64,000 nt of DNA from Candidatus Moraniibacteriota bacterium (GTDB lineage: Bacteria > Patescibacteriota > Minisyncoccia > Moranbacterales > UBA1568), in contig CAVURJ010000002.1 of NCBI GenBank assembly GCA_963743885.1, forward strand, positions 177,706 to 241,705. Reading direction: 5' to 3'. The stretch's first letter is position 1. The number at the start of each line of letters is the position of its first letter. The position numbers and the translations under genes are program-made. The notes beneath the pieces are model-generated. The model was not told the origin of the DNA. It was given only the letters and a program-made list of their open reading frames with translations, and ran no database searches. This document shows positions 3,059-47,305 of the stretch, piece by piece.

Positions 3059-3251
3059 AAGTAACTATCTCAAATCTCATGTTTTGAGAAAACATTCAAA
3101 TTTCGTGATAGAAAGCGTGAAAAGCGAGAAGGGCTATTAGTAATAACCCGACGAGCTTTGAAGGGTTTCTAGCCGAAATTTTGATGTTTTATCAGACAAG
3201 CCCCGGTTTTTGTCTTAACGCGGGCGGTGAGATTTGAGCTAGTTACTAAGG
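3059..3251. repeat. F1 TIR foldback element, copy 2
   Basis: TIRs agtaactatctcaaatctca ... tgagatttgagctagttact. Conserved core gaaaagcgagaagggctattagtaataacccgacgagctttgaagggtttctagccgaaatttt. Confidence 0.75.
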
Positions 3252-4627: not shown

Positions 4628-5308
4628 ATGCATTTTTTCAAGGCGTTGGAACATCTCATCCGCGAATATGCCCACGAGGTCCCGCTCGAGTGGTTTGTGC
4701 TGCTCGGCTCGTTCGCGGAGGAGGTCATAAGTCCGATCCCGTCCGCGCTCATCATGGGGACGGCTGGGTCGATCGCGCTCATGCAGGGGGCTGTTCCTGG
4801 TTATCTCGTTTTTCTTGTGCTCCTTGGTAATATCGGCAAGACGTTTGGATCGTGGATATACTATTTCCTTGGCGACCGACTGGAAGATCTGCTCATCGGC
4901 AGGATCACGAAATTCTTTGGCGTGAAGCATGAGGAGATCGAGAATATCGGCAAGCGTTTCACCGGGCATCACTGGAAGGACGGTGGCATCCTCTTCATCT
5001 TGCGCGCGATGCCGTTCGTGCCGACGACGCCGGTCTCTATCGCTGCCGGTATCATCAAGATGGACAAGCGGATATTTCTTTTGGCGACGTATGCGGGCAA
5101 TGTCATGAAGGACCTCGTCTATATCTATGCGGGCTATGCCGGTCTGGCGAAGCTTCAGACACTCTGGCGGGAGATTATTCCGGTCAAGGCCGGCATCGAT
5201 ATCCTCGTCGCGATCGGCATCATCGCATTCCTGGTGTTCCTCTATATTCATCGCGGTCGCGGAAAAGAGCTCCTGGCTCGCTGTGCGAATCATCTGACGA
5301 AGAAATGA
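4628..5308 (+). CDS. DedA/SNARE-associated (VTT domain) membrane protein
   Basis: Multi-TM protein with DedA-like GxxxGxxxG-type motifs (GNIGKTFGSWIYYFLG). It overlaps uvrB by 4 bp (ATGA). Confidence 0.72.
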   Translation: MHFFKALEHLIREYAHEVPLEWFVLLGSFAEEVISPIPSALIMGTAGSIALMQGAVPGYLVFLVLLGNIGKTFGSWIYYFLGDRLEDLLIGRITKFFGVKHEEIENIGKRFTGHHWKDGGILFILRAMPFVPTTPVSIAAGIIKMDKRIFLLATYAGNVMKDLVYIYAGYAGLAKLQTLWREIIPVKAGIDILVAIGIIAFLVFLYIHRGRGKELLARCANHLTKK

Positions 5309-7365
5309 GTATGCCAACATTTGATCTCAAAAGCGAATATCAGCCTTCAGGTGATCAGCCGCAAGCGATCGCTGCTTTGGTGCGCGGACTGGAAGCGGGG
5401 ATGCCCAAGCAGACACTTCTCGGCGTGACCGGGTCCGGCAAGACGTTTACGATGGCCAATGTCATCGCGCAGTCTGGCAAGCCAGCGCTCGTCATTGCGC
5501 ACAACAAGACGCTCGCGGCACAGCTAGCTCAGGAATACCAGGTATTCTTTCCGGACCACGCTGTGCATTATTTCGTCTCCTACTATGATTACTACCAGCC
5601 GGAAGCGTACATGCCGGTGACGGATACCTATATTGAGAAGGACGCACAGATCAATGAGGAGATCGATCGGTTGCGCCATGCGTCGACCCAGTCGCTTCTC
5701 ACGCGCCGCGATACGATTATCGTGGCATCGGTCTCGTGCATTTACGGTCTCGGCAGTCCTGAAGAATACGAGCGATCGAACCTGCGGCTCGAGGTCGGTA
5801 TGCCGGCATCGCGCACGGAGCTCCTCCACAAACTCGTCTCCATCTTTTTCTCACGCACCAATGCTGATATCGCGCCGGGGCAGTTCCGGAGCCTCGGCAA
5901 TCGCATCGAGATCATGCCGATTTCGGAGAAATACATCTATCTACTCGAGATCGTCGGCGGACGTATCGGTGCCATTACCAAGATCGATCCGGTCTCACAG
6001 AAGATCCTCGAGACGCCCAAAGCGATTTTCCTTTTTCCAGCCAAACACTTCATCACGGACAAGGACCGGCAGGAACAGGCGCTCCAATCTATCGCGCTCG
6101 AGCTCGAGCTTCGGCTTAAGGAGCTTGAAGCGGATGGTAAGTTGCTCGAGGCGGAACGGCTCAAGCGCCGGACGAACTATGATCTCGCCATGATGCGTGA
6201 GATGGGTTATACCAATGGCATCGAGAACTACTCCCGCCATCTCTCAGGCAAAAGCTCCGGTGAGTCGCCAGAGACGCTTCTCTCGTATTTCCCGCGCACA
6301 GCAGATGGCAAGCCAGACTTCATCACGATCATCGATGAGTCGCACGTGACTTTGCCGCAGCTCCGCGGCATGTATGCTGGCGACCAATCTCGCAAGAAGA
6401 CGCTCGTCGAATATGGTTTCCGTCTGCCGAGCGCGCTCGACAACCGTCCGCTTCGCTTCGAAGAATTCGAGGCGCGTGTTGGTCAGGTGATTTTCACGTC
6501 GGCGACGCCTTCGGACTATGAGCGCGAGGCGAGCGGCCAGATCGTTGAACAGGTCATTCGTCCGACGGGACTCTTGGATCCGGAAGTCGAAGTGAAGCCG
6601 ATCCGTGAGAAGGGAGAATATCCTGGTCAGATACAGGACTTTATCGCACAGACGGAGATCGAGGTCGAGAAGGGTGGTCGCGTCATCGCGACGACCCTGA
6701 CCAAGAAGATGGCCGAGGACTTGAGCACGTACTTGAAGGATAAGAAGATCAAAGCCGAGTACCTCCACAGCGATGTGAAGACGATTGATCGTATCAAGAT
6801 CCTGACAGCGTTCCGCAAGGGGGAGTTCGACTGTATTGTCGGCGTCAATTTGCTCCGCGAAGGTCTCGACCTGCCGGAAGTGACCTTCATTGGTATCCTC
6901 GACGCGGACAAGGAAGGTTTCCTTCGATCCGAGACGTCGCTCATCCAGATCATCGGGCGCGCGGCTCGCAATGCGGCCGGTCGCGTCATCCTGTATGCGG
7001 AGTCAATCACTGGGTCGATGCGCTATGCGCTCGACGAGACAGCTCGCCGCCGGACGCTCCAGATCGCCTACAATACGGAGCATGGCATCACGCCGCAGAC
7101 GATCAAGAAGAACATTCATGATATCACTGAGGCGCTCGAAAGCGAGCATGACCGGGCGGTCCGGGCCAACGTCGTATTGGATAGGGAAGTGTTTGCTAAG
7201 GATCCGAAGAAGCTTATCCGTCTCAAGGAGCGGGAGATGCAGGATGCTGTGAAGGTTCTCGACTTCGAGACTGCCGCGATATTGAGGGATGAAATAGCGG
7301 CATTGGAAGCGATATCTTACAAAGGTAAAGGAAAGATGACGAAGCCCCGTAGCAAAGTTTCGTAA
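5305..7365 (+). CDS. uvrB: excinuclease ABC subunit B (UvrB)
   Basis: The N-terminus FDLKSEYQPSGDQPQAI, Walker A GVTGSGKTFT, beta-hairpin region YVSYYDYYQPEAY and C-terminal UVR coiled coil all match UvrB. Confidence 0.97.
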   Translation: MSMPTFDLKSEYQPSGDQPQAIAALVRGLEAGMPKQTLLGVTGSGKTFTMANVIAQSGKPALVIAHNKTLAAQLAQEYQVFFPDHAVHYFVSYYDYYQPEAYMPVTDTYIEKDAQINEEIDRLRHASTQSLLTRRDTIIVASVSCIYGLGSPEEYERSNLRLEVGMPASRTELLHKLVSIFFSRTNADIAPGQFRSLGNRIEIMPISEKYIYLLEIVGGRIGAITKIDPVSQKILETPKAIFLFPAKHFITDKDRQEQALQSIALELELRLKELEADGKLLEAERLKRRTNYDLAMMREMGYTNGIENYSRHLSGKSSGESPETLLSYFPRTADGKPDFITIIDESHVTLPQLRGMYAGDQSRKKTLVEYGFRLPSALDNRPLRFEEFEARVGQVIFTSATPSDYEREASGQIVEQVIRPTGLLDPEVEVKPIREKGEYPGQIQDFIAQTEIEVEKGGRVIATTLTKKMAEDLSTYLKDKKIKAEYLHSDVKTIDRIKILTAFRKGEFDCIVGVNLLREGLDLPEVTFIGILDADKEGFLRSETSLIQIIGRAARNAAGRVILYAESITGSMRYALDETARRRTLQIAYNTEHGITPQTIKKNIHDITEALESEHDRAVRANVVLDREVFAKDPKKLIRLKEREMQDAVKVLDFETAAILRDEIAALEAISYKGKGKMTKPRSKVS

Positions 7366-9417: not shown

Positions 9418-10119
9418 ATGACCGACGAGATTAGGAAGAGATTTACCATCGTTGCTGATGATTATGGGATTCGCCAGACGGCGGAGCCTATCTTGCGTTT
9501 GGTGCGCGAGGGCAAGATCGATCGGGTCGCGGTGCTCATCCACTATGTCTCCGCCGAGCAGGCAGCAGCGCTCCTTGCGACCGGTGTGAAGATCGATCTC
9601 CATCTCGAGCTCATGGACATGATCCAAAGTGGCAAGAAGGTGCGGGAGAGTGCACTCTGGCGCATCATAAAATTTTCTCTCCGGCTCCTGGTTGGCCGGG
9701 TGACGGTCCGTAAGGCCGAGGAAGAATGGCGCTCGCAGATCGAGCGTTTCCGCGAGCGTTTCGGACGGTTGCCGGATGGGATCAATTCGCACGAGCATGT
9801 TCATTTCTTTCCGCCGTTCACCAAGCTCTTTTTCCGGATTGCGGGGGAATACGGCATCGGGCATGTCCGTTTCAGCACGGACGGCCTGATGCTTGATCGG
9901 CATGTTGCGCTCGTCGGCAAGGTGCTTTCCCTTTTGCGCAATCGTTCCCTTTCGCGCTTGGCTTCATCCGGAGTTATCACTTCCCGCTATCTCGTGAACC
10001 TCGACTGGCTGCCGGACTTTCCGGCCTTTGTCGCCAATCTCGGCGATGAGGACAATATCGAGCTGGTCGTCCATCCCGAGCGCGAGGAGGAATACCGCAC
10101 ACTGCTTGACTACTTCTAA
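9418..10119 (+). CDS. ChbG/HpnK (YdjC-like) carbohydrate deacetylase family protein
   Basis: FTIVADDYGI, NSHEHVH and the size match the YdjC family (NADDFG...DSHHHVH pattern). Confidence 0.75.
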   Translation: MTDEIRKRFTIVADDYGIRQTAEPILRLVREGKIDRVAVLIHYVSAEQAAALLATGVKIDLHLELMDMIQSGKKVRESALWRIIKFSLRLLVGRVTVRKAEEEWRSQIERFRERFGRLPDGINSHEHVHFFPPFTKLFFRIAGEYGIGHVRFSTDGLMLDRHVALVGKVLSLLRNRSLSRLASSGVITSRYLVNLDWLPDFPAFVANLGDEDNIELVVHPEREEEYRTLLDYF

Positions 10120-10335
10120 CGTAACTCTCTCAAATCTCACCGCTAGTTATAGAAGAAACGCGAGGAGTGCTTGTCCGTAAAAATCACTCCCGTTCCGGCT
10201 GCAAAACCCGAAAAGCTTGTCGGGTTATTGCTAATAGCCCTGCCTACCGGCAGGCAGGCCTTCGCACTTTTCGACTTTTTCGCTCGAAACGTGAGCGATT
10301 TTTCCTGGACATGAGATTTGAGAGAGTTACTTGGC
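10120..10335. repeat. F1 TIR foldback element, copy 3 (inverted orientation, with a 20-bp internal insertion)
   Basis: TIRs gtaactctctcaaatctca ... tgagatttgagagagttac. The internal core is the reverse complement of the copy-2 core. It starts at the stop codon of 9418..10119 and is followed by gggtatact upstream of uvrA. Confidence 0.72.
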
Positions 10336-10361
10336 CGGACTCTTGATAGTTTAGCCAAAAC

Positions 10362-10370
10362 AGGGTATAC
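10362..10370 (+). promoter_or_regulatory. -10 element gggtatact upstream of uvrA (10454)
   Basis: The same motif recurs at 2013-2024, 8102-8110, 14157-14165, 22027-22035, 24379-24387, 27989-27997, 39140-39148, 51180-51188 and 56104-56112, each 30-90 nt upstream of a + gene. Confidence 0.55.
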
Positions 10371-10386
10371 TACCTGTTCTTCTTTA

Positions 10387-10437
10387 CCCTGTGAAATTCC
10401 GCCGGTAGGCGGACCAGCGAAGCTGGATTTCACAGGG
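10387..10437 (+). ncRNA. REP-like structured hairpin element, copy A (in the uvrA 5-prime leader)
   Basis: cctgtgaaat[tccgccggtaggcgga][ccagcgaagctgg]atttcacagg: a 10-bp outer stem enclosing two small hairpins. Homologous copies lie at 24341 and 30153. Confidence 0.55.
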
Positions 10438-10453
10438 TTAATGACCAGATACT

Positions 10454-13009
10454 ATGAAAGAATCCAAGAAACACAAGGAACCATCTGCGATGATCTCTGT
10501 TCGTGGCGCCCGGACGCACAATCTCAAGAATATTTCCGTCGACATGCCGCGCAATGCCATGGTGGTCTTCACTGGGCTTTCTGGCTCGGGCAAGTCGTCG
10601 CTCGCGTTTGATACCATCTTCGCCGAGGGACAGCGCCGCTATGTCGAGTCGCTCTCCGCATATGCGCGCCAGTTCTTGAATACGATGCAGAAGCCGGATG
10701 TCGATGAGATCCTCGGCCTGTCGCCGGCCATCTCGATCGACCAGAAATCAGCAAGCCGGAATCCTCGTTCGACCGTCGCCACCATCACGGAGATCTATGA
10801 TTATCTCCGCGTGCTGTTTGCACGTCTCGGACGGCCGCACTGTCTCGAATGCGGACGCGAGATCCAGAAGCTGTCCGTCGAGGAGATGATCGAGATCGTC
10901 TCTGATAAGGTGAAGGCGACCAAGAAGAAGGAAGGCGCTCTCATCATCGCGGCACCGGTCGTGCGTGGCCGCAAGGGCGAGTATTATCAGCTGCTCTACA
11001 ATGCGCTCGGCAAGGGCTTCAGCGAGATCTTCCTCGATGGGGAGCGCAAGAGTTTGCGCGAGCGCGTCATCCTTTCTAAGAATAAGAAGCACGATATCGA
11101 TCTCATCGTCGACGAGATACCGCTTCAGGAGTTCGGGAAGTTTCCCGAGACGTCCGCTGAGCGGCTCTCGGAAGCGGTGGAGCGTTCGCTTGAGGAGAGC
11201 GAGGGTTTGGTGAATATCCGCATCGCTGGGGAGACGCTTGTACTTTCGTCCAAGTTCTCTTGCCCGTATGACGGCTTCTCCTATCCAGAGGTAGAGCCGC
11301 GGCTCTTCTCCTTCAATTCACCGTACGGTGCTTGCGAGGCGTGCAATGGTCTCGGCACCAAGCATTTCTTCGGCGATGAGCCATGTGACGTCTGCCATGG
11401 GTCGCGTCTGCGTCCGGAGGCACTCCACGTGAAGATTGGTGGGAAGAATATCGTCGAGCTGACAGCTATGACCACTGTCGAGGCCAAGGCGTTCTTTGAT
11501 GGTCTTGAGCTCTCTGAGCGCGAGCGGCAGATCGCATCCGTAGTGCTGCGCGAGGTGGGCGGCCGTCTGCAGTTCCTGCTCGATGTCGGCCTCGACTATC
11601 TCTCTCTCGGCCGCCGCGCCAATACACTCTCGGGCGGCGAAGCGCAGCGCATCCGTCTGGCATCCCAGCTTGGGTCCAAGTTGGTCGGTGCGCTCTATGT
11701 GCTCGACGAGCCGACGATCGGCCTCCACAGCCGTGACAATGACCGGCTCATCGCGACACTTCAGGCACTCCGCGATCTCGGCAATACTATCATCGTCGTC
11801 GAGCATGACGAGGATACGATCTTTGCGTCCGACTACATCGTCGATATCGGCCCTGGCGCCGGCGTGCACGGCGGCGAGGTCGTGGCCTCCGGCTATCTCG
11901 ATGATCTCCTGACAGCCAAGAAAAATACATCCGGATCACTCACGCTCGCGTACCTGCGCGGCGAAGAGCGGATCGCTATCCCGGAGAAGCGCCGTGGCAA
12001 GGAGAAAGGCGCGCTCAAGGTCCGCGGTGGCAATCTCTACAATATCAAGGGCATGGATCTCGATATCCCGCTCGGCCGCTTCGTCGCGATCACGGGCGTA
12101 TCCGGTTCGGGCAAGTCGACGCTCATGTATGAAATCGTCCACAAGAATCTCCAGGTTCGCCTCGATCGTCGCTATCGTGACAACAAGACGTTCAATTGCC
12201 AAGCATTCTCTGGATCGGAATATCTTTCCCGTGCCGTGCTCATCGATCAGAGCCCGATCGGTCGTACGCCGCGGTCCAACCCGGCGACGTATACCGGCGC
12301 GTGGACACATGTCCGCGATATGTTCGCTGCGACCGAGGAGGCCCGTGTGCGCGGCTGGAAGGCCGGCCGCTTCTCGTTCAACCGTCCCGGCGGACGCTGC
12401 GAGACGTGCGAGGGCAACGGTTTCATCGCGGTGGAGATGCACTTCTTGCCGACAGTCTATGTGGAGTGCGATGTCTGCAATGGCAAGCGCTTCACCAAAG
12501 AGACACTCGAAGTGAAGTACAAGCACAAGAGTGTCTATGACGTGCTTGAGATGACGATTGAGGAAGCGTACGCGTTCTTCTTCGATATTCCAGCGATCGC
12601 TGACCGGCTCAAGACCTTGAATGAAGTGGGCCTCGGCTACCTCAAGCTCGGCCAGAGCGCGACCACACTTTCGGGTGGCGAGGCGCAGCGCGTGAAGATC
12701 TCAAGCGAACTCTATCGCCAGCATGTCGAGCGCACTATCTACCTCCTCGACGAACCGACCATCGGGCTCCACTACGAGGATGTGAAGAAGCTTATAGAGA
12801 TCCTCGATCGCCTCGTGCAGAAGGGGAATACCGTCCTTGTCATCGAGCACAATATGGATCTCATCAAGTCTGCTGACTACGTGATCGATATCGGTCCCGA
12901 AGGCGGCGTCGGCGGCGGTCAGGTCGTCGCCTACGGCACGCCGGAAGAAGTCTCGCTCAAGAAGGCTTCGCATACGGGGATGTATCTCCGCAGAGTGCTC
13001 AAGCGCTAG
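10454..13009 (+). CDS. uvrA: excinuclease ABC subunit A paralog lacking the insertion domain (UvrA, 851 aa)
   Basis: Two ABC modules ([10 protein letters not shown] / [18 protein letters not shown] x2) and zinc-finger Cys pairs are present. Compared with the second uvrA in the window, about 100 aa are missing between [16 protein letters not shown] and CDVCHGSRL (the insertion domain). The UvrB-binding-domain-like segment is retained. Confidence 0.93.
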
Positions 13010-13298: not shown

Positions 13299-14030
13299 AT
13301 GGCGACTGACAAGGTCGACATCGCGGAGACGAATGCTATTTCGGCTTCGCAAATGAGTGAGTTCTTCCGGCTGGCAGCCAAACACGGCAGCCATGTCAAT
13401 CGGGAAACATTTCAGATGTTTCTCGAGTGGAAGCCGCTGTTTCTTGAACCGGGTACGAACGAGTTTCTCCGTTTGGCGCGCACCATCGATGAAATACGCA
13501 TCAAGATGGGCGTGAGCGATAAACAGTTCCGTACTCTCTGGACTCCCGAAGGTCGTCCGTATCTCGAGCGTATGATCGCCGGCCTAGTTGATACGATCAT
13601 TCGTGTCGACCGTTCCATTAGACCGGTTTACCCTAATTGGGCGAAGACGATAATGCATCCGGAGCTAGAAGCGACTGGCCCGGCCGAATATGACCTTTTC
13701 GAAGTGGAGCCTTGGCTTCATGAAGGCCAGAAGAACGGTCAACACATAGCGGGCTATCAGATTTATAAGTATTTGAAGGAACAGAAGATGCTCAAGAGCT
13801 GTCTGTCCCTCCGTGACGGCGAAGAAATCCGAAAAAAAGGCCCAACCGTTTTTCAGAAGGTCTTCGGAGATAGAGAGATCCTTCTGTGGAAGTCAGTTGT
13901 ACAGCATCGCGACAACCGCATCGCTGTCCCATACATTCGCAAGGATCGCGGTGAGATGGGAGGAGACTGGCTCGGTCTCAGTGAAATCGCGTTTGGTAAA
14001 GGATCTGTGACCCCGCGTTTCACAAGGTAA
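13299..14030 (+). CDS. hypothetical protein
   Basis: 243-aa ORF with SD aaggag upstream, coding-like codon usage and no recognised domain. Flanked upstream by phased heptamer arrays. Confidence 0.5.
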   Translation: MATDKVDIAETNAISASQMSEFFRLAAKHGSHVNRETFQMFLEWKPLFLEPGTNEFLRLARTIDEIRIKMGVSDKQFRTLWTPEGRPYLERMIAGLVDTIIRVDRSIRPVYPNWAKTIMHPELEATGPAEYDLFEVEPWLHEGQKNGQHIAGYQIYKYLKEQKMLKSCLSLRDGEEIRKKGPTVFQKVFGDREILLWKSVVQHRDNRIAVPYIRKDRGEMGGDWLGLSEIAFGKGSVTPRFTR

Positions 14031-24105: not shown

Positions 24106-24340
24106 TCAACAAAAACCACCGGCTTTAGCCGGTGTGTGCGTTTAAAGCGTAGCAAGTTTTCCACTCAACCTTAAAAAAATCGCCTCTTCATTCTTTCGTT
24201 CCCTTCCGCTCAATTTCCAATACTTCACTCCCCAAGAGACCATGTTTTCAAATAAGGCTTTTTCCGCCGGCTTTGCCGGCAGGATAGAAACTACCAGCGA
24301 GAGCTGGTAGTTTTCATTTTGGTTGTATTCCGAGGGTTTA

Positions 24341-24379
24341 CCCTATGAAATTCCGCCATGTGCGGACAATTTCATAGGG
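24341..24379 (+). ncRNA. REP-like hairpin element, copy B (shorter variant)
   Basis: ccctatgaaattccgccatgtgcggacaatttcataggg: the same outer stem and first inner hairpin; the second inner hairpin is missing. It sits immediately upstream of the -10 tgtataat. Confidence 0.5.
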
Positions 24380-24419
24380 TGTATAATTTGGGTATTCGTG
24401 ATTTTTATTTTTCAGAGAA

Positions 24420-24704
24420 ATGAAAAAGAGAGACAAGCGAGAGCTAAATAGAGGATTTGGGCTGACTGTTCTTGGTGCTTTGCTTGGTTTTTTTGTAAGC
24501 CTAACCGCATCGGGAGTATTTGAAGGATTGATACATGGTTGGTCTGTTAAGGTTATTTTTGTTGTCGTTGGGTTTGGCTTTGTTTCGGTTTTCTTTGTTT
24601 CATTATTTTCACACCTTATTGATAATATCGATCGAGTAGGAAGTATGTCCGAAAAGGAATTTTTCGAAGACTATCTTCAATCTATTTTTCATTTGAAGAA
24701 ATGA
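24420..24704 (+). CDS. small two-TM membrane protein (AT-rich gene)
   Basis: 94 aa with two hydrophobic helices. Markedly lower GC than its neighbours. Overlaps the next gene by ATGA. Confidence 0.45.
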   Translation: MKKRDKRELNRGFGLTVLGALLGFFVSLTASGVFEGLIHGWSVKVIFVVVGFGFVSVFFVSLFSHLIDNIDRVGSMSEKEFFEDYLQSIFHLKK

Positions 24705-25369
24705 TTACGAACAGCATGAAAAGAGTGGCGGTGCTTATCATCTCGGGAGGGGTGTTCATAGCGGCGACGGCGTGGCTGTTTTCGCATGCGTCGGTGCAGT
24801 GGAAAGCGCTAGATCTCTGGGAAGTGGTGACTGGCCACTATATCATCGAGCACGATACGCTCAGCGGTACAGATAGGTATGTCGGCGTGAGCCGTGACCG
24901 TATGGATCGGGTAGCGTTGATCAATACGGAGACGAAGGAGAAGATGCGGGAAATTGCAGTGCAGCACAAGGCAAAAGAGGAGGCGGAGAAGGAACGGGCG
25001 GAGGCCACGGAAGCGATGCGCGTGGATAGCGCATGGACGTTGCTTAGGGGGGATCCGGGCGATAGCTGTTCCGGTCCGACATACACTGGTGAAGTCGCGG
25101 TACATGGATGGTATATGTTGGAGTATCCTTACGGCAATAAGACATGGGCGTTCAAGCTTGCCCCAGAGGATCGGAAGAAGATATTCGTTGCAGAATATGA
25201 TTATTCTTTTAGGATTGCGGATGCATCGGCCGCACTCAAGCAACGGTTGCATCAGGCATCGGAGAAACATCCGGCCGAACTGACAATTCGCGGGATGATG
25301 TATTATTGTGAAGGGATGCCGATCGTAAGCATCGACGCGCCCGGCCCGAAAGGCATCATATTCAAATGA
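24701..25369 (+). CDS. membrane-anchored hypothetical protein
   Basis: N-terminal TM helix, charged coiled segment, Cys-containing C-terminus. Co-oriented and translationally coupled with 24420..24704. Confidence 0.5.
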   Translation: MITNSMKRVAVLIISGGVFIAATAWLFSHASVQWKALDLWEVVTGHYIIEHDTLSGTDRYVGVSRDRMDRVALINTETKEKMREIAVQHKAKEEAEKERAEATEAMRVDSAWTLLRGDPGDSCSGPTYTGEVAVHGWYMLEYPYGNKTWAFKLAPEDRKKIFVAEYDYSFRIADASAALKQRLHQASEKHPAELTIRGMMYYCEGMPIVSIDAPGPKGIIFK

Positions 25370-25373
25370 TCAT

Positions 25374-25736
25374 ATGAAAGTCTGCAAGACCGTCGGGGAA
25401 TATGAGAAGAGCCTGCCTGAGGAAGCGCTCGCGGAATTCGTCGCGCTATGGGGCGTGATCCGTGAGATGGTGCCGGAGGGCGAGGAGGCGATCCGCTATG
25501 GCGTGCCGACGATCCGGATCAATGGGAGGAATCTGGTCCATCTGGCCGCCGCGAAAAACCATCTCGGATTCTATCCGGCCCCTTCGGGCGTGAAGGCGTT
25601 CGAGAAGGAAATCCGGGGGAAGTATGCATACAGCAAAGGCACGATCCAATTCCTGCTCGGCAAGAAGCCGCCGCTCGGTCTGGTCCGTCGCATCGTCCGC
25701 TTCCGCCTCGCCGAGGAGCGCGCGAGGAAGAAATGA
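25374..25736 (+). CDS. DUF1801 (YdhG-like) domain protein
   Basis: GVPTIRINGRNLVHLAAAKNHLGFYP ... GKYAYSKGTIQF matches DUF1801. Confidence 0.72.
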   Translation: MKVCKTVGEYEKSLPEEALAEFVALWGVIREMVPEGEEAIRYGVPTIRINGRNLVHLAAAKNHLGFYPAPSGVKAFEKEIRGKYAYSKGTIQFLLGKKPPLGLVRRIVRFRLAEERARKK

Positions 25737-25750
25737 TTGCATCCCAATCC

Positions 25751-25785
25751 TCTTCCTTCTTCTTCTTCTTCTTCTTCTTCTCTTT
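25751..25785. repeat. (CTT)n microsatellite, about 8-10 units
   Basis: tcttccttcttcttcttcttcttcttcttctc is intergenic, 15 bp after the DUF1801 gene stop. Confidence 0.9.
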
Positions 25786-25831
25786 CGCTCCCTCATCCCT
25801 TCACGCCTTCCTTTCCGCATTTCTTTTGATA

Positions 25832-25865
25832 GTGTCATAATTCCGCGGCCGCGGAATTATGACAC
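25832..25865. repeat. 34-bp perfect palindrome P1 (gtgtcataattccgcggccgcggaattatgacac)
   Basis: A perfect inverted repeat with the sequence gcggccgc at its centre. An identical copy lies at 26617. Confidence 0.85.
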
Positions 25866-25989
25866 GGCGCTAAGAAACGATACACGCTATTTTCTATGAT
25901 GGAATATGAGGGTAAGATAGAGGTAAGATGGAGATAAGACGGGTATAGGGAGAGGTAAGAATGTGGGTGGATAGGATAAGCAGAAGCAT

Positions 25990-26625
25990 ATGTATAAATT
26001 CGGCCCGGTACAACAGAAGATCCTTCTTTTGTTAGTCGGAGGTATCGCGCTTGGATTGGAGACGTCATCAATTCGGTACTATCGGAAGCTGGGGATGCTG
26101 ATGAAGGACCTGAAGGAGATCGATGCTCGCAATTTGCGTCGCTCGATGGGACGTTTGTGTCTGCAGAAGCTTGTGGAGGAAGTGTACCTTCCCGACGGTT
26201 CGTTCAAGCTGGTCTTGACGGAGGCGGGGAAACGGCAGGCGCGTATCCAGCTTCTTTTCGGTAAATCAATCCGTTTCCGGAATCCGAAGCGTTGGGATAA
26301 GAAGTGGCGCATCGTTATGTTCGATATCCCAGAAAAGGAGAAGAAGTTCCGCGATATCTTACGCGAACACCTGCGCGAATTGAGATTTTATAAGCTGCAG
26401 CATAGTGTCTTCGTGTCCCCGTATCCGTGCGAGAAGCCGCTGTTGGAGTTGGCGGCCCTCTATAAGGCGGGGCCGTATGTAAGGGTAGTGACGGCCGAGC
26501 GGATAGATAACGAAGAGAAGCTCAAGGACCATTTCTTCCGTTCGAAGCCTGTGAAATCGAAAAAATCTTTGAAATCCGCGAAGCTTTCAAAAAGAAAAAA
26601 CAGTTCAAAAAATTCCGTGTCATAA
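25990..26625 (+). CDS. PaaX-like transcriptional regulator (N-terminal wHTH plus Cas2-like-fold C-terminal domain)
   Basis: WRIVMFDIPEKEKKFRDILREHLRELRFYKLQHSVFVSP is the Cas2-like fold of the PaaX C-terminal domain. Its stop codon lies inside a 34-bp perfect palindrome. Lys/Ser-rich tail. Confidence 0.5.
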   Translation: MYKFGPVQQKILLLLVGGIALGLETSSIRYYRKLGMLMKDLKEIDARNLRRSMGRLCLQKLVEEVYLPDGSFKLVLTEAGKRQARIQLLFGKSIRFRNPKRWDKKWRIVMFDIPEKEKKFRDILREHLRELRFYKLQHSVFVSPYPCEKPLLELAALYKAGPYVRVVTAERIDNEEKLKDHFFRSKPVKSKKSLKSAKLSKRKNSSKNSVS

Positions 26626-26650
26626 TTCCGCGGCCGCGGAATTATGACAC
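26617..26650. repeat. 34-bp perfect palindrome P2 (identical to P1)
   Basis: It contains the stop codon of the PaaX-like gene (…aattccgtgtcaTAA…). A T-rich run follows. Confidence 0.85.
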
Positions 26651-26696
26651 GTGTTTTCTATAATGAAATATCGTTTTATCCTTAACAGGAACGGGT

Positions 26697-26972
26697 ATGA
26701 AAAAAGTATACAGACAGTGCCAGTCATGCGGGATGCCACTGAAACGGGACCAAAATGGTGGCGGGACGGAGCTGGATGGTTCGTGTAGCACTATGTATTG
26801 TAGCTCTTGCTATCGTGACGGCGCTTTCGTCCGGCCGGAGATGACTCTTGAGGAGATGCAGCAGCAGGTCGATGATGTTCTGAAGAATGAGATGGGGTGG
26901 TGGAAACCGTTTCGTTGTCTGGCTGTGCGCCAGATCCCGCGTCTCGCCCGTTGGTCACAAAACGAGCGGTGA
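26697..26972 (+). CDS. zinc-ribbon domain protein
   Basis: CQSCGMPL ... CSTMYCSSCYRDGAF: two CxxC pairs in a zinc-ribbon arrangement. Confidence 0.6.
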   Translation: MKKVYRQCQSCGMPLKRDQNGGGTELDGSCSTMYCSSCYRDGAFVRPEMTLEEMQQQVDDVLKNEMGWWKPFRCLAVRQIPRLARWSQNER

Positions 26973-26985
26973 TTGATTTCAAATT

Positions 26986-27019
26986 GTAACATAATTCCAC
27001 GGTCGTGGAATTATGTTAC
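26986..27019. terminator. palindrome P3 (variant of P1/P2) plus T-run: likely bidirectional terminator
   Basis: gtaacataattccacggtcgtggaattatgttac followed by tttttgttttg. It lies between the convergent genes 26697..26972 (+) and 27095..27901 (-). Confidence 0.6.
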
Positions 27020-27094
27020 TTTTTGTTTTGAGGATTTTTGATAAGAAAAAACCGCCGCACAGCTTGGCTGGCGACGGCGTTGTGCCCGGGGTGG

Positions 27095-27901
27095 CTAACT
27101 GAAGAACGCGGGGACCTGGTTGACTTCGACGAGCAGGCCTTCGTTCGAGTGGCGCGGGCGATGTATCTCCTTCCATCCGGAATCCCAGAAGGGTGTTTCG
27201 GCAGGGCGGATCTTGCGCACCCACTTGGCGTACGGGTGGATTTTTCCGCTGTTCGGATCCTTGCGCGTGTAGTGCATGATCTCGCAGTTGTGGATGCGGT
27301 CCGCGGGGTCGTCGGAAGAGACGAGCTCGCGGAAGCGTTGCTGCGAGGGGCGTTCGAGGCGGACCTGGAAGCCGCGCATCACTTCGCCGTGACAGACGAG
27401 GATGACATTTTCATAACCGCTGCATTCGCGGTGCAGCGTGAGGAGTACGCGGTCGATGCGCATACAGAGGCTCATGAACGATTCGCCATTGGGCGGACGC
27501 CAGAAGAACGGCTCGATACTCCGCATCTTGAGCGCGGCAGCGAAGCGCGCATTGCGCTCGTTCTCGGGAGCGATATCGATGTCGCCCCAGTCGCGCTCGG
27601 TGAGGTACGGATCGCTGAGCCAGTCGCTGAACGGCAGGCCAAGCAGGGCGGCGGTCTCTTTGGCACGGATGTATTCCGACACGTAGTAGCGGTCGAAGGC
27701 GACTGCAAGATGCTTCTGGATCCAGCGGCCGGTGTCTTCTGCTTGTTGGCGCCCGAGGGCGGTGAGCCGGAAACTGCCGGAGTGGCGGTTGCGGAATTCC
27801 TCGGAATAGGCGGAATGGTCGCCGGCCTCGGAGAGTCGTTTGGCGGCGTTGCCTTCGGATTGTCCATGGCGGACCAGGATGAGATTGACGGGCAGTGTCA
27901 T
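27095..27901 (-). CDS. histidine phosphatase superfamily (phosphoglycerate mutase-like) protein
   Basis: LILVRHGQSEGN RHG motif, a downstream catalytic His (VCHGEVMRG) and the expected length. The + ORF 27038..28000 is antisense to it and rejected. Confidence 0.82.
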   Translation of the reverse strand: MTLPVNLILVRHGQSEGNAAKRLSEAGDHSAYSEEFRNRHSGSFRLTALGRQQAEDTGRWIQKHLAVAFDRYYVSEYIRAKETAALLGLPFSDWLSDPYLTERDWGDIDIAPENERNARFAAALKMRSIEPFFWRPPNGESFMSLCMRIDRVLLTLHRECSGYENVILVCHGEVMRGFQVRLERPSQQRFRELVSSDDPADRIHNCEIMHYTRKDPNSGKIHPYAKWVRKIRPAETPFWDSGWKEIHRPRHSNEGLLVEVNQVPAFFS

Positions 27902-28037
27902 GGGAAAGGACTCCTTTTCCTTCGGTTGAAGTGTCTCTACTCAACTACGGAAAAGCAGTCTTGTCAATGGTCGGGTAGTTTCTGGATGGTGGTATACTAG
28001 TATCAGCTAGCCTAATCAGTAACCTACATCATATTCT

Positions 28038-28934
28038 ATGCCACGGATTACCCGTCCGGACGGACAGATCGATCCGGAGAAGCTCAAGGAGAGCATCGAG
28101 CAGTGGAAGGCGCCTGTCATGGTCGTCATCGCGCTCGTCTTCTTTTCCGGCCCACTCTCGGCCATCCTAAGTAGTATGTATCTCACTATGGAAACTATCA
28201 TTCTCATCGCCGCAGTCGTCGTGTTGCTTTTCTCAATCAAGCAGATCAATCAGTACGAGCGCGGGATCAAATTTACGATCGGGAAATTTACCGGCCTGAT
28301 GGCTCCCGGCTGGCGGCTTGTCATTCCGGTCTTCCAGTCGTATCAGAAGATCGATATGCGTGTGCGCGCGGTGGACGTGCCGAATCAGGAGGCTATCACC
28401 AAGGACAATATCTCGGTCACGGTGAACGCTGTCATCTACTACAAGATTTCTGAGGCAGAGAAGGCGATCCTCGAGGTGGAGGACGTGTACTACGCGGTGT
28501 CACAGCTGGCGCAGACGACGATGCGTAATGTCGTCGGAGAAGTCGATCTCGATGAGCTTTTGTCCAAGCGCGATGCTATCGCTGAGCGTATCCGGGCCAT
28601 CGTGGATCAGGCGACGGATGTCTGGGGCGTCAAAGTCAATTCTGTCGAGCTCAAGGATGTGACGCTGCCGGAGGAGATGAAGCGTGTGATCGGCAAGCAG
28701 GCTGAGGCAGAGCGTGAGAAGCGCGCGGTCATCATCAAGGCCGAGGGCGAAGTCATCGCGGCCGAGAATCTTGCCAAGGCGGCGACGATCCTGTCGAGTG
28801 CGGACGGGGCGCTCCATCTGCGTACGCTCAATACGCTCAATGATGTCTCGTCGGACCAGTCCAACACCATTGTCTTCGCGACGCCGATCGAGATCCTGCG
28901 CGCCTTCGACCGGCTCGGCAGGAAGGGGGAATAG
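28038..28934 (+). CDS. SPFH/band-7 (stomatin/HflC-like) membrane protein
   Basis: N-terminal TM helices, then the SPFH core (QYERGIKFTIGKF ... ISVTVNAVIYYKI ... coiled coil EAEREKRAVIIKAEGE). Confidence 0.88.
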   Translation: MPRITRPDGQIDPEKLKESIEQWKAPVMVVIALVFFSGPLSAILSSMYLTMETIILIAAVVVLLFSIKQINQYERGIKFTIGKFTGLMAPGWRLVIPVFQSYQKIDMRVRAVDVPNQEAITKDNISVTVNAVIYYKISEAEKAILEVEDVYYAVSQLAQTTMRNVVGEVDLDELLSKRDAIAERIRAIVDQATDVWGVKVNSVELKDVTLPEEMKRVIGKQAEAEREKRAVIIKAEGEVIAAENLAKAATILSSADGALHLRTLNTLNDVSSDQSNTIVFATPIEILRAFDRLGRKGE

Positions 28935-29062
28935 CGGACAAACGAGGAGGACGACATGTAAAAACCCAGCTCAAGGGCTAGGTTTTTGTTTTTTGGTTTG
29001 AGAGGACCTTGCTTCGCTTTGGCTTGTAGGGCGGGTAGAGGCGTCGGAAATTTGCGAAACCA

Positions 29063-29094
29063 TTGACAATGGAGGGTGGTCATGGGCGTATACT
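29063..29094 (+). promoter_or_regulatory. sigma70-type promoter TTGACA-N20-TATACT upstream of the cupin gene
   Basis: ttgacaatggagggtggtcatgggcgtatact; the spacer is slightly long. Confidence 0.45.
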
Positions 29095-29129
29095 GGGGGT
29101 GGAGATAACTTTTTAGAAACGCTACGAGT

Positions 29130-29531
29130 ATGAAAAAAGGATACAAGGCAAATATCGAGCAGCTGACGGCTGAGAACACAAATTTTCGTCAGGTACTCTA
29201 TACCGCCAAGGATTGTCAGCTCGTCCTCATGTCGCTCGTTCCGGGCGGAGAGATCGGGCTGGAGACGCATGACGAAGGGGATCAGTTCTTCCGTTTTGAG
29301 AAGGGCGAGGGCAAGGTGATCATCGACGAGACAGAATACGAGGTGTCGGATGGCGATGCAGTCATCGTCCCGATGGGTGCCAGGCACAATGTCATCAATA
29401 CCTCGGAGACCGAGGCGCTCAAGATGTATACGATCTATGCTCCGCCGCATCACAAGGATGGCATCATCCGTGCGACGCGTGCCGAGGCAGAAGCCGACGG
29501 TCCAGAGTTTGACGGTGTAACGACTGAATAG
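29130..29531 (+). CDS. cupin domain protein
   Basis: The two-His motif GLETHDEGDQFFRFEKGEGKV...GARHNVINTS is typical of the cupin double-stranded beta-helix. Preceded by TTGACA (29063) and TATACT (29089). Confidence 0.78.
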   Translation: MKKGYKANIEQLTAENTNFRQVLYTAKDCQLVLMSLVPGGEIGLETHDEGDQFFRFEKGEGKVIIDETEYEVSDGDAVIVPMGARHNVINTSETEALKMYTIYAPPHHKDGIIRATRAEAEADGPEFDGVTTE

Positions 29532-29677
29532 TAGGGGGAGAGAAAACCATCGGCAAGCGCCGATGGTTTTTGCACATTCTGATGAGCACTCGCGTAGCAG
29601 GATTTCGCAGGGTGAATATTGTGCTATTTTTTGCTTGATGTATACTATAGTATGTAAGTATAGTAAACATTAAAATT

Positions 29678-30139
29678 ATGAAAAAGAAAACGAGGGGAGA
29701 AATCGTGATCTATCAGGCGAAATCTGGTGCCATCGAACTGCGCGGAGATTTCGGCAAGGAAACCATGTGGGCAAGTCTTGATCAGATGACCGCAGTCTTC
29801 GGCCGTGATAAGTCTGTCATATCTCGGCATATAAAGAATATCTTCAAGGAGGGCGAGTTAAGGCGTGATTCAGTTGTTGCATTTTTTGCAACAACTGCGA
29901 AAGATGGGAAAACATACAATGTCGAATACTTCAATCTTGATGTAGTTTTGTCGGTTGGTTATAGGGTCAATTCAAAGACGGCGACTCAGTTCCATCAGTG
30001 GGCGACCAAGACGCTGCGCGAGCATATCACCCGCGGGTATACCATCAATCGCCGCCAGGTTGTCAAGAACTACGATACGTTCCTGAAGTCGATCGCGGAC
30101 ATCCAGGCGCTTTTGTCGGAACATGTATATAGTTTCTGA
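29678..30139 (+). CDS. RhuM-family (virulence protein RhuM / Fic-associated DNA-binding) N-terminal domain protein
   Basis: IVIYQAKSGAIELRGDFGKETMWASLDQMTAVFGRDKSVISRHIKNIFKEGEL ... YNVEYFNLDVVLSVGYRVNSKTATQFHQWATKTL closely follows the RhuM N-terminal domain. At 153 aa it is about half the length of typical RhuM proteins. AT-rich gene and upstream region. Confidence 0.85.
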   Translation: MKKKTRGEIVIYQAKSGAIELRGDFGKETMWASLDQMTAVFGRDKSVISRHIKNIFKEGELRRDSVVAFFATTAKDGKTYNVEYFNLDVVLSVGYRVNSKTATQFHQWATKTLREHITRGYTINRRQVVKNYDTFLKSIADIQALLSEHVYSF

Positions 30140-30152
30140 GATAGCTACTGTC

Positions 30153-30201
30153 CTCATGAAATCCGACTTTGTCGGTCCGCCTATTGGCGGAATTTCATAG
30201 G
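30153..30201 (-). ncRNA. REP-like hairpin element, copy C (reverse orientation)
   Basis: The reverse complement reads cctatgaaat[tccgccaataggcgga][ccgacaaagtcgg]atttcatgag. The second inner hairpin, ccagc/gctgg in A, becomes ccgac/gtcgg here, which is a compensatory change. Confidence 0.55.
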
Positions 30202-30266
30202 CAAATCTTGACACTTTGTGGCGGAGGCGTAGGATGGCGGTATGTTCTTTTCTGGAGGACTGTATC

Positions 30267-30761
30267 ATGTCCGAATTCAATCGTTTGTTCGAAGTATTTC
30301 AGAAGCGCAGTCCCAAGGAGGCTGCCGAGTGGATGCGGGATGTCAACGAGCTCGGCGTTTTTGATGAGGTGCGGTGTCTCGCCGATGTGTACCGGTGCCA
30401 GAACGAAGAGATCCATGACACGTGCACGAAGTGCAATTGTGACGTGCCGTGCAGCTACAGTCAGCGCGAGATCAATTGGATCGCGCGGGGCGGCCCGTGG
30501 AGCTTTTCGTTTGCAGAGAGCGGTATCCAGGATCCCGTGTCCTACGAGGCCTGGGATATGTTTGCCCTCCTGCTCTCCTGTACCGAGCATGCGCTCGAGA
30601 AGGAACGCGGCATGTGCGGGTGCCATCTGACGCCTGAACAGCTTTGGGATCCGGATGGTGCCGAATGGCACGACCGCCTCGCGAAGCGCTTCGCTCCTGT
30701 CCGCCAACCGACCGCCCAAGACGGTTATCGGCCGATTGAGGGATACGCAGCCTGTCAGTGA
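30267..30761 (+). CDS. Cys/Trp-rich hypothetical protein
   Basis: Start at MSEFNRLF. High GC3 coding signal. Multiple CxxC pairs (CTKCNCDVPC, CGC). The antisense ORF 30195..30848 is rejected. Confidence 0.5.
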   Translation: MSEFNRLFEVFQKRSPKEAAEWMRDVNELGVFDEVRCLADVYRCQNEEIHDTCTKCNCDVPCSYSQREINWIARGGPWSFSFAESGIQDPVSYEAWDMFALLLSCTEHALEKERGMCGCHLTPEQLWDPDGAEWHDRLAKRFAPVRQPTAQDGYRPIEGYAACQ

Positions 30762-45369: not shown

Positions 45370-46839
45370 ATGCCGAAGCTCTGGGAAAAATCAGTAACGC
45401 TCGAAGCGTTTAAGAAAAAAAACAGGCTACCGGAAGTGCCGGGAGTGTATTTTTTCTTGGGAAAGAAGAAGGAGGTCCTCTATATCGGCAAGGCGACGAT
45501 TCTTCGTGACCGGGTGAAGAGCTATTTCTCGCAGGACATCATGGAGACGCGCGGGCCGAAGATTGCTCTTATGCTCGGGAAGATCCGGTCCATCGCGTAT
45601 CGGAAGACTGATTCGGTGCTTGAGGCGCTCATCCTCGAGACCAATCTCATCAAGGAGCATCAGCCGTCGTACAATACCGACCAGAAGGATGATAAGAGCT
45701 ACAATCATGTCGTCATCACGGATGAACTGTTCCCGCGCGTCTTGGTCATAAGAGGAAGAGATTTAGAAAAATATCCTCCTGTCATTCCCGCGAAGGCGGG
45801 AATCCAGAAAAAGAAATCCTGGATCCCGGGTCAAGCCCGGGATGACATAAGAATAAAATATTCATTCGGGCCGTTCCCATCGGGTGGCGGATTGCGTGAA
45901 GCGATGAAGATCGTGCGGAGGCTTTTCCCATATCGGGATACGTGCGTGCCAACGGACAGTCAACAGTCAACAGCTAACAGTCAACAGCGAACAGAGAACA
46001 ATCAGCAGTCAACAGCGAACAGAGAACAATCAGCAGTCAACAGTCAGCAGCTAATAGTTAGCAATGAACAAAAAGCAGTCATCAGTCAACGAAGAAAAAA
46101 GGCCGTCCCTCAAGCGTGTTTTAATAGGCAGATTGGTCTGTGTCCGGGAGTATGTACTGGTGAGATATCCGCTAAGGAATATGCACGGATAATCAATCAT
46201 ATCCGGCTGTTCTTCGAAGGACGGAAAAGTATGCTGGTGAAGCGGCTCGAGCGCGAGATGAAGGCGGCTGCCAAGGCGCTCGAGTTTGAGCGGGCTGGCG
46301 AGATCAAGAAGACGCTTTTCGGTCTGCAGCATATCCAGGATATGGCGCTTGTGAAGAATGACGAACGACTCACGACTCACGACTCACGACAGGGAGTGCG
46401 GATTGAAGCGTATGATGTGGCGCATCTCATGGGAGAGGCGTCGGTCGGTGTGATGACGGTCGTTTCCGGAAGTTATGCGGATACCGATGAGTATCGGCAG
46501 TTCAGGTTGCGAGGGGATCATAAGGGCAATGATCTCGCAGCGCTCGAGGAAATATTGTTCCGCCGCCTGAAGCATCCTGAGTGGGGACGGCCTGATGTCA
46601 TTGCGGTTGATGGATCATTCCTCCAGCTCGGCGTCGCTGAGCGCCTTTTTGACGGACTTCCTGAGAAGCCGCTTCTGGTTGGCGTTGTGAAGGACGCGCG
46701 ACACAAGGCGAAGGAGATCATCGGGTTGCCGGCGGGCTTCGCTCGGCTTGAGACTGATATATTGCTCGCGAATAACGAGGCACACCGCTTCGCTATCGCT
46801 TTTCATCGCAAGCGTCGCGGGAAGGAATTCTTGAAGTAA
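45370..46839 (+). CDS. uvrC: excinuclease ABC subunit C (UvrC), short form with two in-frame repeat insertions
   Basis: GIY-YIG domain (GVYFFLGKKKEVLYIGKA), Cys motif FPYRDTC ... CFNRQIGLCPGVC, UVR domain (EMKAAAKALEFERAGEIKK) and the RNase H-like endonuclease domain (RIEAYDVAHLMGEA). The C-terminal HhH2 domain is absent or short. Confidence 0.92.
   Translation: MPKLWEKSVTLEAFKKKNRLPEVPGVYFFLGKKKEVLYIGKATILRDRVKSYFSQDIMETRGPKIALMLGKIRSIAYRKTDSVLEALILETNLIKEHQPSYNTDQKDDKSYNHVVITDELFPRVLVIRGRDLEKYPPVIPAKAGIQKKKSWIPGQARDDIRIKYSFGPFPSGGGLREAMKIVRRLFPYRDTCVPTDSQQSTANSQQRTENNQQSTANREQSAVNSQQLIVSNEQKAVISQRRKKAVPQACFNRQIGLCPGVCTGEISAKEYARIINHIRLFFEGRKSMLVKRLEREMKAAAKALEFERAGEIKKTLFGLQHIQDMALVKNDERLTTHDSRQGVRIEAYDVAHLMGEASVGVMTVVSGSYADTDEYRQFRLRGDHKGNDLAALEEILFRRLKHPEWGRPDVIAVDGSFLQLGVAERLFDGLPEKPLLVGVVKDARHKAKEIIGLPAGFARLETDILLANNEAHRFAIAFHRKRRGKEFLK
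45781..45846 (+). repeat. 66-bp palindromic element inserted in-frame in uvrC (translates as VIPAKAGIQKKKSWIPGQARDD)
   Basis: gtcattcccgcgaaggcgggaatccag ... ctggatcccgggtcaagcccgggatgac: two inverted similar halves, each itself a hairpin. It replaces the roughly 8-aa loop that E. coli UvrC has between the GIY-YIG domain and FGPFP. Confidence 0.65.
45957..46095 (+). repeat. tandem repeat block inside uvrC (28-bp unit x2 perfect, plus degenerate cagtcaacag sub-repeats)
   Basis: cagtcaacagcgaacagagaacaatcag occurs twice in tandem at about 45978-46033. The block is read as QQSTANSQQRTENNQQSTANREQSAVNSQQ and expands the loop inside the UvrC Cys motif from about 11 to about 57 aa. Confidence 0.8.
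46366..46388 (+). repeat. heptamer tandem repeat (cgactca)x3 inside uvrC
   Basis: cgactcacgactcacgactcacgac encodes TTHDSR. Confidence 0.8.
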
Positions 46840-47037: not shown

Positions 47038-47305
47038 TTTGTATTTTGTAGAGACTTCATTCTGAAGCCTTTCCCGAGGCCAGAATCTTCCGGAGAAACT
47101 CTGGAGTCCGAGCGGGCACGGTTCCGAAGGAGAGCAAGGACGGAAGGTAATGGGACCGCCACGCCGGGGCGGGACCATGATTCTCCGGAAGGTTGCTGGT
47201 CCGAGTGGGAAGGCGAGTCGCGGCAGGAGTCTTTACAGCATCTTAAAAAGAGAGTACACTGGAAAGCAATTCTGCGTTTTTCCATCCTTCCAAGAACAAC
47301 GCCCT

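Follow-up and report, generated by a model that had tools for sequence, protein, structure and literature searches.

Does the family of short hairpins found in a genome of Candidatus Moranbacteria (Patescibacteria/CPR) act as structured RNA, is it a DNA site kept by its host or does it represent a mobile element, and is its secondary structure maintained at all? These questions are raised by a 64-kb stretch of DNA with a GC content of about 54% that is termed the window in the following. An earlier note on this DNA had claimed a family of three hairpin copies, and all three are indeed present and intact. The family is larger than that, as searching the window for just the arm sequence brought up a fourth copy with a truncated 5' part (remnant D):

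10385-10440, + strand: copy A, full 56-nt unit with the layout TACCCTGTGAAAT / TCCGCC-ggta-GGCGGA / CCAGC-gaa-GCTGG / ATTTCACAGGGTTA; unit bounds set by the empty-site alignment in L172/L173 (see below)
24339-24382, + strand: copy B, short 44-nt form consisting of the outer stem and one hairpin, TCCGC-catgt-GCGGA
29580-29615, + strand: remnant D, 5'-truncated, E1 subtype (tga-TGAGCA-ctcgc-gta-gcagg-ATTTCGCAGGGTGA)
30149-30204, - strand: copy C, full unit, second hairpin CCGAC-aaa-GTCGG

The unit comprises about 56 nt (44 nt in its short forms) and is built from two inverted arms of 12-15 nt, (T)ACCCTGTGAAAT...ATTTCACWGGGT(G/T)A, which have up to two short GC-rich hairpins between them, so that the single strand forms a hairpin or a perfect three-way junction. 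Full copies combine a 12-bp outer stem with a 6-bp and a 5-bp hairpin and have no unpaired bases at the junction. The unit ends read TT|TACCC... and ...GGGT(G/T)A|AT. Copies A, B and C have the outer stem ACCCTRTGAAAT/ATTTCAYAGGGT in common. The version described before, cctRtgaaat/atttcaYagg, is present in all three, but the true length is 12 bp and the right arm of copy C carries a bulged G (atttcatGagg). The cores are located at 10388-10438 (copy A, +: cctgtgaaat-tccgcc-ggta-ggcgga-ccagc-gaa-gctgg-atttcacagg), 24342-24381 (copy B, +, without the second hairpin) and 30153-30203 (copy C, -: cctatgaaat-tccgcc-aata-ggcgga-ccgac-aaa-gtcgg-atttcatgagg). The first inner hairpin had been given as tccgcc-N4-ggcgga, which applies to A and C, whereas B contains tccgc-N5-gcgga with 5 bp. 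The second one, ccagc/gctgg in A vs. ccgac/gtcgg in C and absent from B, had been described correctly. The arms are the best-conserved part of the family; depending on the copy, they have just 7 nt, one or two hairpins or as much as 93 nt between them.

A chance origin of the three window copies is excluded. The loose pattern TGAAAT-N18-48-ATTTCA has three matches in the window, which are copies A, B and C, where 0.11 are expected, and none of 100 shuffles yielded the same. In a search with a covariance model built from the copies, A scores 88 bits, C 79 bits and B 57 bits; once opposite-strand readings of these three are set aside, the next-best score in the window is 21.7 bits. As RNA, the window copies fold as predicted with z-scores of -5.7 to -7.6, or of -4.9 to -7.6 when both strands are considered, including -34.5 kcal/mol and a z-score of -7.6 for copy A and a z-score of -6.8 for copy B. 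As DNA, they fold equally well on both strands with z-scores of about -9 (-9.5 for copy A).

A covariance-model search of related contigs retrieved about ten more members with conserved pairing in four other contigs. They occur in two settings, a syntenic Moranbacteria relative (L169) and an unrelated CPR lineage with a GC content of 34% (L172 to L175):

L169 12595-12655 (E1), 12652-12722 and 12863-12902: members found with the covariance model
L172 9925-9984, 12829-12887, 13838-13897 and 15039-15098: copies found with the covariance model
L172 8975-9093: long variant with arms TCACCCTGTTAAAT / ATTTAACAGGGCAA and a 93-nt interior
L173 8377-8435: decayed copy, one in L173/L174
L175 5079-5137 and 8155-8210: copies found with the covariance model

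All copies found are intergenic and they occur in either orientation; many of them are decayed or truncated. In L169, a nest of members resides just upstream of a full-length rhuM-Fic gene and thus occupies the place that remnant D, upstream of a truncated rhuM, has in the window. Member E1 from this nest forms the same three-way junction (-33.9 kcal/mol, z -7.8) with a different inner part of the outer stem (TTACAT/ATGTAA), TGCTCA/TGAGCA as hairpin 1 and CCCAC/GTGGG as hairpin 2. The nest also holds a decayed copy, E2, with two G-U pairs in hairpin 1, an orphan arm and an outer-stem-only form. In the JGI metagenomes, a strict pattern retrieved a single contig, L123, with a GC content of 34%. 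The sole stretch it has in common with the window is 60 nt long with 90% identity. L172 to L175 stem from the organism of L123 and its close relatives; like L169, they were reached via neighboring proteins, and they are assigned to the Patescibacteria by APRT homologues. With four copies and the long variant in 20 kb, repeats are dense in L172. In the full-length copies of the low-GC lineage, the fifth outer-stem pair is a conserved T-T mismatch. Contigs of both kinds, from the lineages with 54% and 34% GC, occur in metagenome sample 3300037810.

How specific are these matches? The loose pattern TGAAATTCCGCC-N8-38-ATTTCA hit at least 120 loci in genome contigs, nearly all of them chance matches, which later served as a negative control: in 734 kb of unrelated loci containing TGAAATTCCGCC...ATTTCA, model R2 found one match above 22 bits. 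Pattern scans of viral contigs gave no genuine family match, and a 66-nt query had no match in plasmids or phages. The one match in the control set (L099 6097-6148, - strand, 34 bits) is a B-like single hairpin, GACCCATGAAAT-TCCGC-cagtt-aGCGGA-...-ATTTCATTGGGT, in an intergenic region of a 37%-GC MAG labelled Cloacimonadia. It is followed by a T-run and may be a distant family member or an unrelated terminator.

The paired segments have been exchanged for other complementary sequences several times. Hairpin 1 occurs as TCCGCC/GGCGGA, TCCGTC/GACGGA, TCCGC/GCGGA and TGCTCA/TGAGCA, hairpin 2 as CCAGC/GCTGG, CCGAC/GTCGG, CCCAC/GTGGG, CCTGC/GCAGG and CCACGC/GCGTGG, and the inner part of the outer stem has been swapped as well. 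In an alignment of seven sequences, 91% of the cells are paired and nine of the 23 pairs feature double changes; none of 500 shuffles reaches the observed values. The 11 model-aligned sequences, which have been fitted to the covariance model and among which element F3 enters on both strands, show 93.9% paired cells and double changes at 11 of 23 pairs (24 cells), and again none of 500 shuffles reached this. Sliding the 3' partners of the 11-sequence set by 1-3 columns reduced pairing to 31-45%. Since pairing is kept through double changes while shuffles and slid controls fail, the structure is real and maintained. The earlier note had already proposed selection on pairing and had named the loss of pairing in additional copies as the finding that would speak against it; the approximately ten further copies do keep their pairing.

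The next question is what the structure is kept for. Copy A has the following immediate surroundings:

10343-10371, + strand: sigma-70-like promoter TTGATA-17-TATACT of the UvrA-paralogue gene, conserved in L121
10454-13009, + strand: UvrA paralogue, 851 aa, with ABC ATPase and UvrA_inter domains and without UvrA_DNA-bind

Copy A is part of the leader of this UvrA-paralogue gene, with 13 nt between it and the ATG at 10454, and as it is located downstream of the conserved promoter, it would be transcribed. The N-terminus of the protein aligns with that from L121 from this ATG on, and the public collection has a shorter version starting at 10490. The copy had been placed in the leader of uvrA, between promoter and start. 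This holds for the position, but the gene encodes a UvrA paralogue lacking the DNA-binding domain. It neighbors uvrB (5305-7365), and canonical uvrA (984 aa, 47150-50104) adjoins uvrC (45370-46839). Homologues of the ABC ATPase next to copy A bear the names Candidatus Moranbacteria or Patescibacteria, which assigns the window to a CPR bacterium. The positions stated for the other two copies proved accurate. Copy B follows a terminator-like hairpin (24287-24314) and adjoins a TATAAT box on its other side. Copy C begins 14 nt downstream of the stop of a truncated rhuM, of which only positions 1-89 of the 252 in the RhuM profile are left, and lies directly upstream of the -35 region of the next promoter (30208-30235). 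Promoter geometry thus differs among the three: A is found downstream of a -10 box, B abuts one and C is situated upstream of a -35 box.

Strong RNA folds (z -5.6 to -7.8 for window copies and L169), the position of copy A within a leader so close to a start codon and a few G-U pairs like the two in hairpin 1 of E2 would fit a structured cis-regulatory RNA or small RNA motif that serves as a stabilizer, translation modulator or terminator and is kept by selection on RNA. Effects on mRNA stability and translation are also on record for classical REPs (PMC3733652). Several observations render this explanation very unlikely nevertheless. Orientation relative to transcription, a check proposed in the earlier note, is mixed: about eight copies are oriented in sense and three in antisense to the flanking genes, and convergent or divergent genes surround another three. 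Copies B and C are located beside or upstream of promoter elements and their transcription is not assured, no U-tract follows the stem and the DNA folds equally well on both strands. The window has no Rfam match at gathering thresholds; around copy A, only sub-threshold matches to microRNA-like hairpins were obtained. Furthermore, the presence of the element varies between close relatives at the same genes, which is unlike a conserved regulator.

A further feature of the UvrA-paralogue promoter may be mentioned here. The palindrome AACAGGGTATACTACCTGTT at 10359-10378 overlaps its -10 box and is partly conserved in L121 (about 9970-9990) as AATAGGGTATACTGGCTGTT; it could be a putative operator, e.g. 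for a damage-response repressor.

If not RNA, the structure might be kept as DNA by the host, i.e. as a cruciform or protein-binding site with a role in architecture, recombination or defence that has spread by recombination. Such an explanation could draw on copy C residing exactly at the rhuM truncation, on the clustering of copies in a variable island downstream of a DUF456 gene in both the window and L169 and on the outer arms containing TGTGA...TCACA, which resembles CRP-type half-sites. We consider it most unlikely: the spacing of the arms varies from 7 to 93 nt, which excludes a fixed dimeric binding site and also an operator of the CRP or LexA type (TGTGA...TCACA), decay or truncation has affected many copies and presence varies between close relatives. 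In addition, the core is common to genomes with 54% and 34% GC that have no other similarity, and this fits a travelling element better.

Two further candidates were discarded in this context. An integron attC site is ruled out as there are no RYYYAAC/GTTRRRY ends, and an intrinsic terminator is ruled out as there is no T-run after the stem. The idea that copies B (+) and C (-) delimit a 5.8-kb composite element as its inverted ends is not supported: in relatives, this place is occupied by a variable island and not by a clean insertion. This island extends from 24300 to 30300 in the window and from 10600 to 20486 in L169, in each case downstream of the DUF456 gene. In the window, copies B, D and C are found at or near its edges and it encodes PaaX/Cas2-like, zinc-ribbon, SPFH/Band 7 and cupin proteins in addition to the truncated rhuM. 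Its counterpart in L169 contains full-length rhuM-Fic, NADAR, MazE, RadC, Fic and a type I restriction-modification system.

Comparison of orthologous sites provides direct information on mobility. Among the relatives found, L121/L170 is the closest; it is syntenic with the window (UvrA 92% identical, ~82% nucleotide identity) and lacks copy A between the corresponding promoter and ATG. In the L121 leader, TTGAAC-17-TATACT is followed by the ATG 12 nt later without any element, and none is present in L122 either. The lack of copy A in the L121 leader points to insertion into the leader or to loss in the relative. One site, and one only, is resolved to the base: here, the filled L172 (13838-13897) differs from the empty orthologous site in L173 by exactly 56 nt (TACCCTGTG...CACTGGGTTA), and gain and precise excision look alike. 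The indel lies between GGTT and ATAAAG in near-identical flanks without target duplication; no target-site duplication is visible at any of the window copies either. In L172, L173 and L175, whose APRT proteins are 94-95% identical, the intergenic sites occupied by copies differ. Upstream of APRT, the copy has opposite orientations in L172 and L175, and the flanking motif is turned along with it. All seven low-GC copies reside in GTT|ATAA(A/T)G with the orientation of the element fixed to the motif, TT precedes all window and L169 copies, and removal of copy B restores GGTT|ATAAT, a -10-like box. We conclude that the hairpin family is, with high probability, a mobile element.

The flanking motif is part of short tandem arrays of GTTATAAAG with a -10-like TATAAA core, which are intergenic and occur in either orientation in the low-GC CPR lineage (L172 9905-9993, 12796-12828, 13908-13948 and 15020-15106; L173 12860-12910 and 13840-13970). 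As these arrays are also found without the element, they seem to represent the target of insertion rather than a piece of the element itself. In L172, eight of eight exact GTTATAAAG copies adjoin hairpin elements; L173 contains nine exact copies and one element.

Bacterial MITEs of the DDE type (Correia/NEMIS, RUP, ERIC, BOX) create target-site duplications, usually measure 100-200 nt or more and can land in promoters or leaders and change expression there. Our family resembles them in being small, intergenic and foldable and in having terminal inverted repeats. It might accordingly be a conventional TIR MITE, mobilized by a DDE transposase for which the 12-15-bp arms serve as double-stranded binding sites, with the inner hairpins as mere passengers. 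The arms being the best-conserved part, with anything from 7 to 93 nt between them, would agree with this, as would a second TIR-bounded repeat family in the window, since it shows that MITE-like elements do live in this genome. Yet the elements are only 44-56 nt long, neither the L172/L173 empty site nor the window copies exhibit a target-site duplication, and the constant flanking motif of the low-GC copies is a pre-existing target array and no duplication. The lack of duplication argues against a DDE-type MITE. Moreover, the inner hairpins are conserved and covary, and we detected no gene for a DDE transposase in the vicinity of the copies. We therefore hold this alternative to be quite unlikely.

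The second repeat family just mentioned is unrelated to the hairpins. Its members comprise 182-210 nt (1805-1986, 3063-3244 and 10121-10330) and are bounded by a 17-19-nt inverted repeat, GTAACTCTCTCAAATCTCA, that is perfect in the third copy; its arms have six matches where 0.27 are expected. The third copy closely precedes the promoter of the UvrA paralogue and is lacking in L121. This second family looks like a MITE.

Which enzyme might then mobilize the hairpin elements? In the low-GC lineage, one candidate gene is encoded close to the repeat:

L123 1521-2201 = L172 8146-8826: Y1 transposase gene, 226 aa, Pfam Y1_Tnp 30.6 bits (cut-off 23)

The encoded protein contains the HUH motif HYHFIL and the tyrosine motif YLSAYVNKN. 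NCBIfam yields REP_Tyr_transpos as its sole match, with E = 6e-8 and a score of 32.7 bits that falls short of the 80-bit cut-off; in the PDB, no sequence match was obtained. The long repeat variant is located 150 nt upstream of the gene and a full copy 1.1 kb away; none is found on its 3' side. The gene is absent at that place in the close relatives L173 to L175, and we found no Y1 transposase in the 64-kb window or the other Moranbacteria loci. An autonomous element is not apparent, as no gene resides between paired arms in any locus examined. Proximity to the repeat is weak evidence because copies are dense in this region (4-5 per 20 kb), and with one gene on one contig, flanked on one side only, a tie between the repeat and the Y1 transposase gene is suggestive.

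We favor, with moderate confidence, a REP/REPIN-like miniature element whose structure is kept by the need of a transposase and which is moved by a Y1 HUH transposase via single-stranded DNA. The REP-like character suspected in the earlier note agrees well with the additional members, their conserved pairing, the precise presence/absence pattern and the Y1/RAYT-like gene beside a repeat variant in one host. According to this model, a Y1 transposase supplied in trans would recognize the folded single strand, including the conserved T-T mismatch in the outer stem, would cut at GTT|TA and (G/T)A|AT and would move the unit by the single-strand 'peel and paste' route. This route is known to proceed without duplication and to be strand- and target-specific. 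Precise gain or loss without duplication combined with strict specificity for target and orientation are hallmarks of Y1 HUH transposases of the IS200/IS605 type, as known from IS608 and ISDra2. The structure would then be kept because the transposase needs the folded unit, not because the host needs the RNA, and any consequences for neighboring genes would be side effects. These might include the presence of a structure of -34.5 kcal/mol 13 nt before the start of the UvrA paralogue, of a copy abutting a -10 box and of a copy at the break point of rhuM. As copy A has placed a structure before a start codon that in L121 follows the promoter almost directly, a regulatory effect on the UvrA paralogue is possible as such a side effect. 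The regulatory role tentatively raised in the earlier note is not required by the favored explanation.

Comparison with established systems reveals likeness and deviation in each case. IS608 inserts 3' of TTAC and ISDra2 3' of TTGAT, and the ends of IS200/IS605 elements are not inverted repeats of each other. The hairpin family resembles them by insertion 3' of GTT in GTT|ATAAAG with fixed orientation, by precise loss or gain without target-site duplication (at one site), by hairpins near both ends and by an associated gene with the Y1 HUH catalytic set. It differs from them in that an outer stem of 12-15 bp joins both ends and in that no autonomous copy with arms flanking tnpA or tnpB is present among the loci examined. 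With REPs and REPINs, the family has in common that short extragenic imperfect palindromes occur in several to many copies, that they form clusters in L169 like BIMEs, that subfamilies with compensatory stem changes and a conserved stem mismatch exist, that a Y1 HUH transposase gene adjoins a copy and that old copies persist at orthologous sites (remnant D in the window, E1 in L169). As in REPINs, two inverted arms surround a spacer (7-93 nt here), but the arms are not palindromes themselves and, instead of a plain spacer, the interior consists of two conserved hairpins that give rise to a three-way junction. One end of classical REPs bears an unpaired tag, GTAG or CGTC, that is conserved (PMC3733652), whereas neither GTAG nor CGTC is common to the copies of our family. 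Tagged REPs have been reported in eight phyla other than CPR/Patescibacteria (PMC3733652), the group to which the host described here belongs. In contrast to RAYT genes, the Y1 gene has repeats on one side only, and its score does not reach the cut-off set for RAYTs in NCBIfam. REPIN-RAYT systems have been described as mostly vertically inherited (10.1101/2022.05.22.493013), while here the same core is common to two distant lineages. Finally, TIRtrons or TIRYTs consist of a Y1 gene between long inverted repeats, and these repeats make up families of their own as well (Di Nocera et al., 2013, PMC3733652). They resemble the situation described here with regard to the combination of a Y1 transposase with an inverted-repeat family, the lack of a GTAG tag and a moderate copy number, but their repeats reside on both sides of the gene, while both arms of the nearest copy are located upstream of the Y1 gene in L123/L172.

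More tentatively, we suggest that a REPIN/RAYT-like system may exist in CPR bacteria, in which three-way-junction units insert without duplication into -10-like (G)TT|ATAA(A/T) and are passed between CPR lineages that occur together and differ strongly in base composition. The genomes of CPR bacteria are very small and densely packed with genes, and few mobile elements are assumed to be present in them. As the target resembles the -10 box of promoters, new copies would land in promoters or leaders, as A and B have done. The target preference would thus provide a route to altered promoters and leaders, exemplified by the leader of the UvrA paralogue, and new copies could rewire expression in minimal CPR genomes. 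REP/RAYT-type biology would be extended to a large uncultured group, and the setting of sharing would be that of distant CPR lineages in the same groundwater-type metagenomes. In the literature searched, we found no description of the arm sequence or of MITEs or REP/RAYT systems in CPR bacteria. What is new here is a three-way-junction unit without a tag in a CPR host that is common to co-occurring lineages with 54% and 34% GC. The repeat family would also serve as a marker of strain-level variation.

Two further structures are present in the window. A perfect 34-nt palindrome, gtgtcataattccgcggccgcggaattatgacac, at 26617-26650 overlaps the 3' end of the PaaX/Cas2-like gene (25990-26625). It has the AATTCCGC core of the hairpin family, but not its arms, and scores 17 bits with the model. 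Directly after the UvrA paralogue, the window contains a 1.2-kb insertion relative to L121 (13010-14213) with AT-rich flanking repeats of the ATACATAATAC type. Its ORF 13299-14030 (243 aa) has no Pfam or NCBIfam match; it had been considered as a Y1 transposase because of a weak tblastn match, and was rejected as BLASTP, Pfam and NCBIfam show no relation.

The repeat also flags a source of annotation errors because gene callers run ORFs across its copies. Public gene calls extend over hairpins in L172 (12875-13873 and 15047-16417) and in L169 (12596-12934, - strand). In L172, an epimerase is called with 332 aa instead of the 312 aa found in relatives and UDP-glucose dehydrogenase with 456 instead of 435 aa. 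In L169, an ORF of 112 aa is called over the whole nest of copies. All three gene calls are likely annotation artefacts caused by the repeat.
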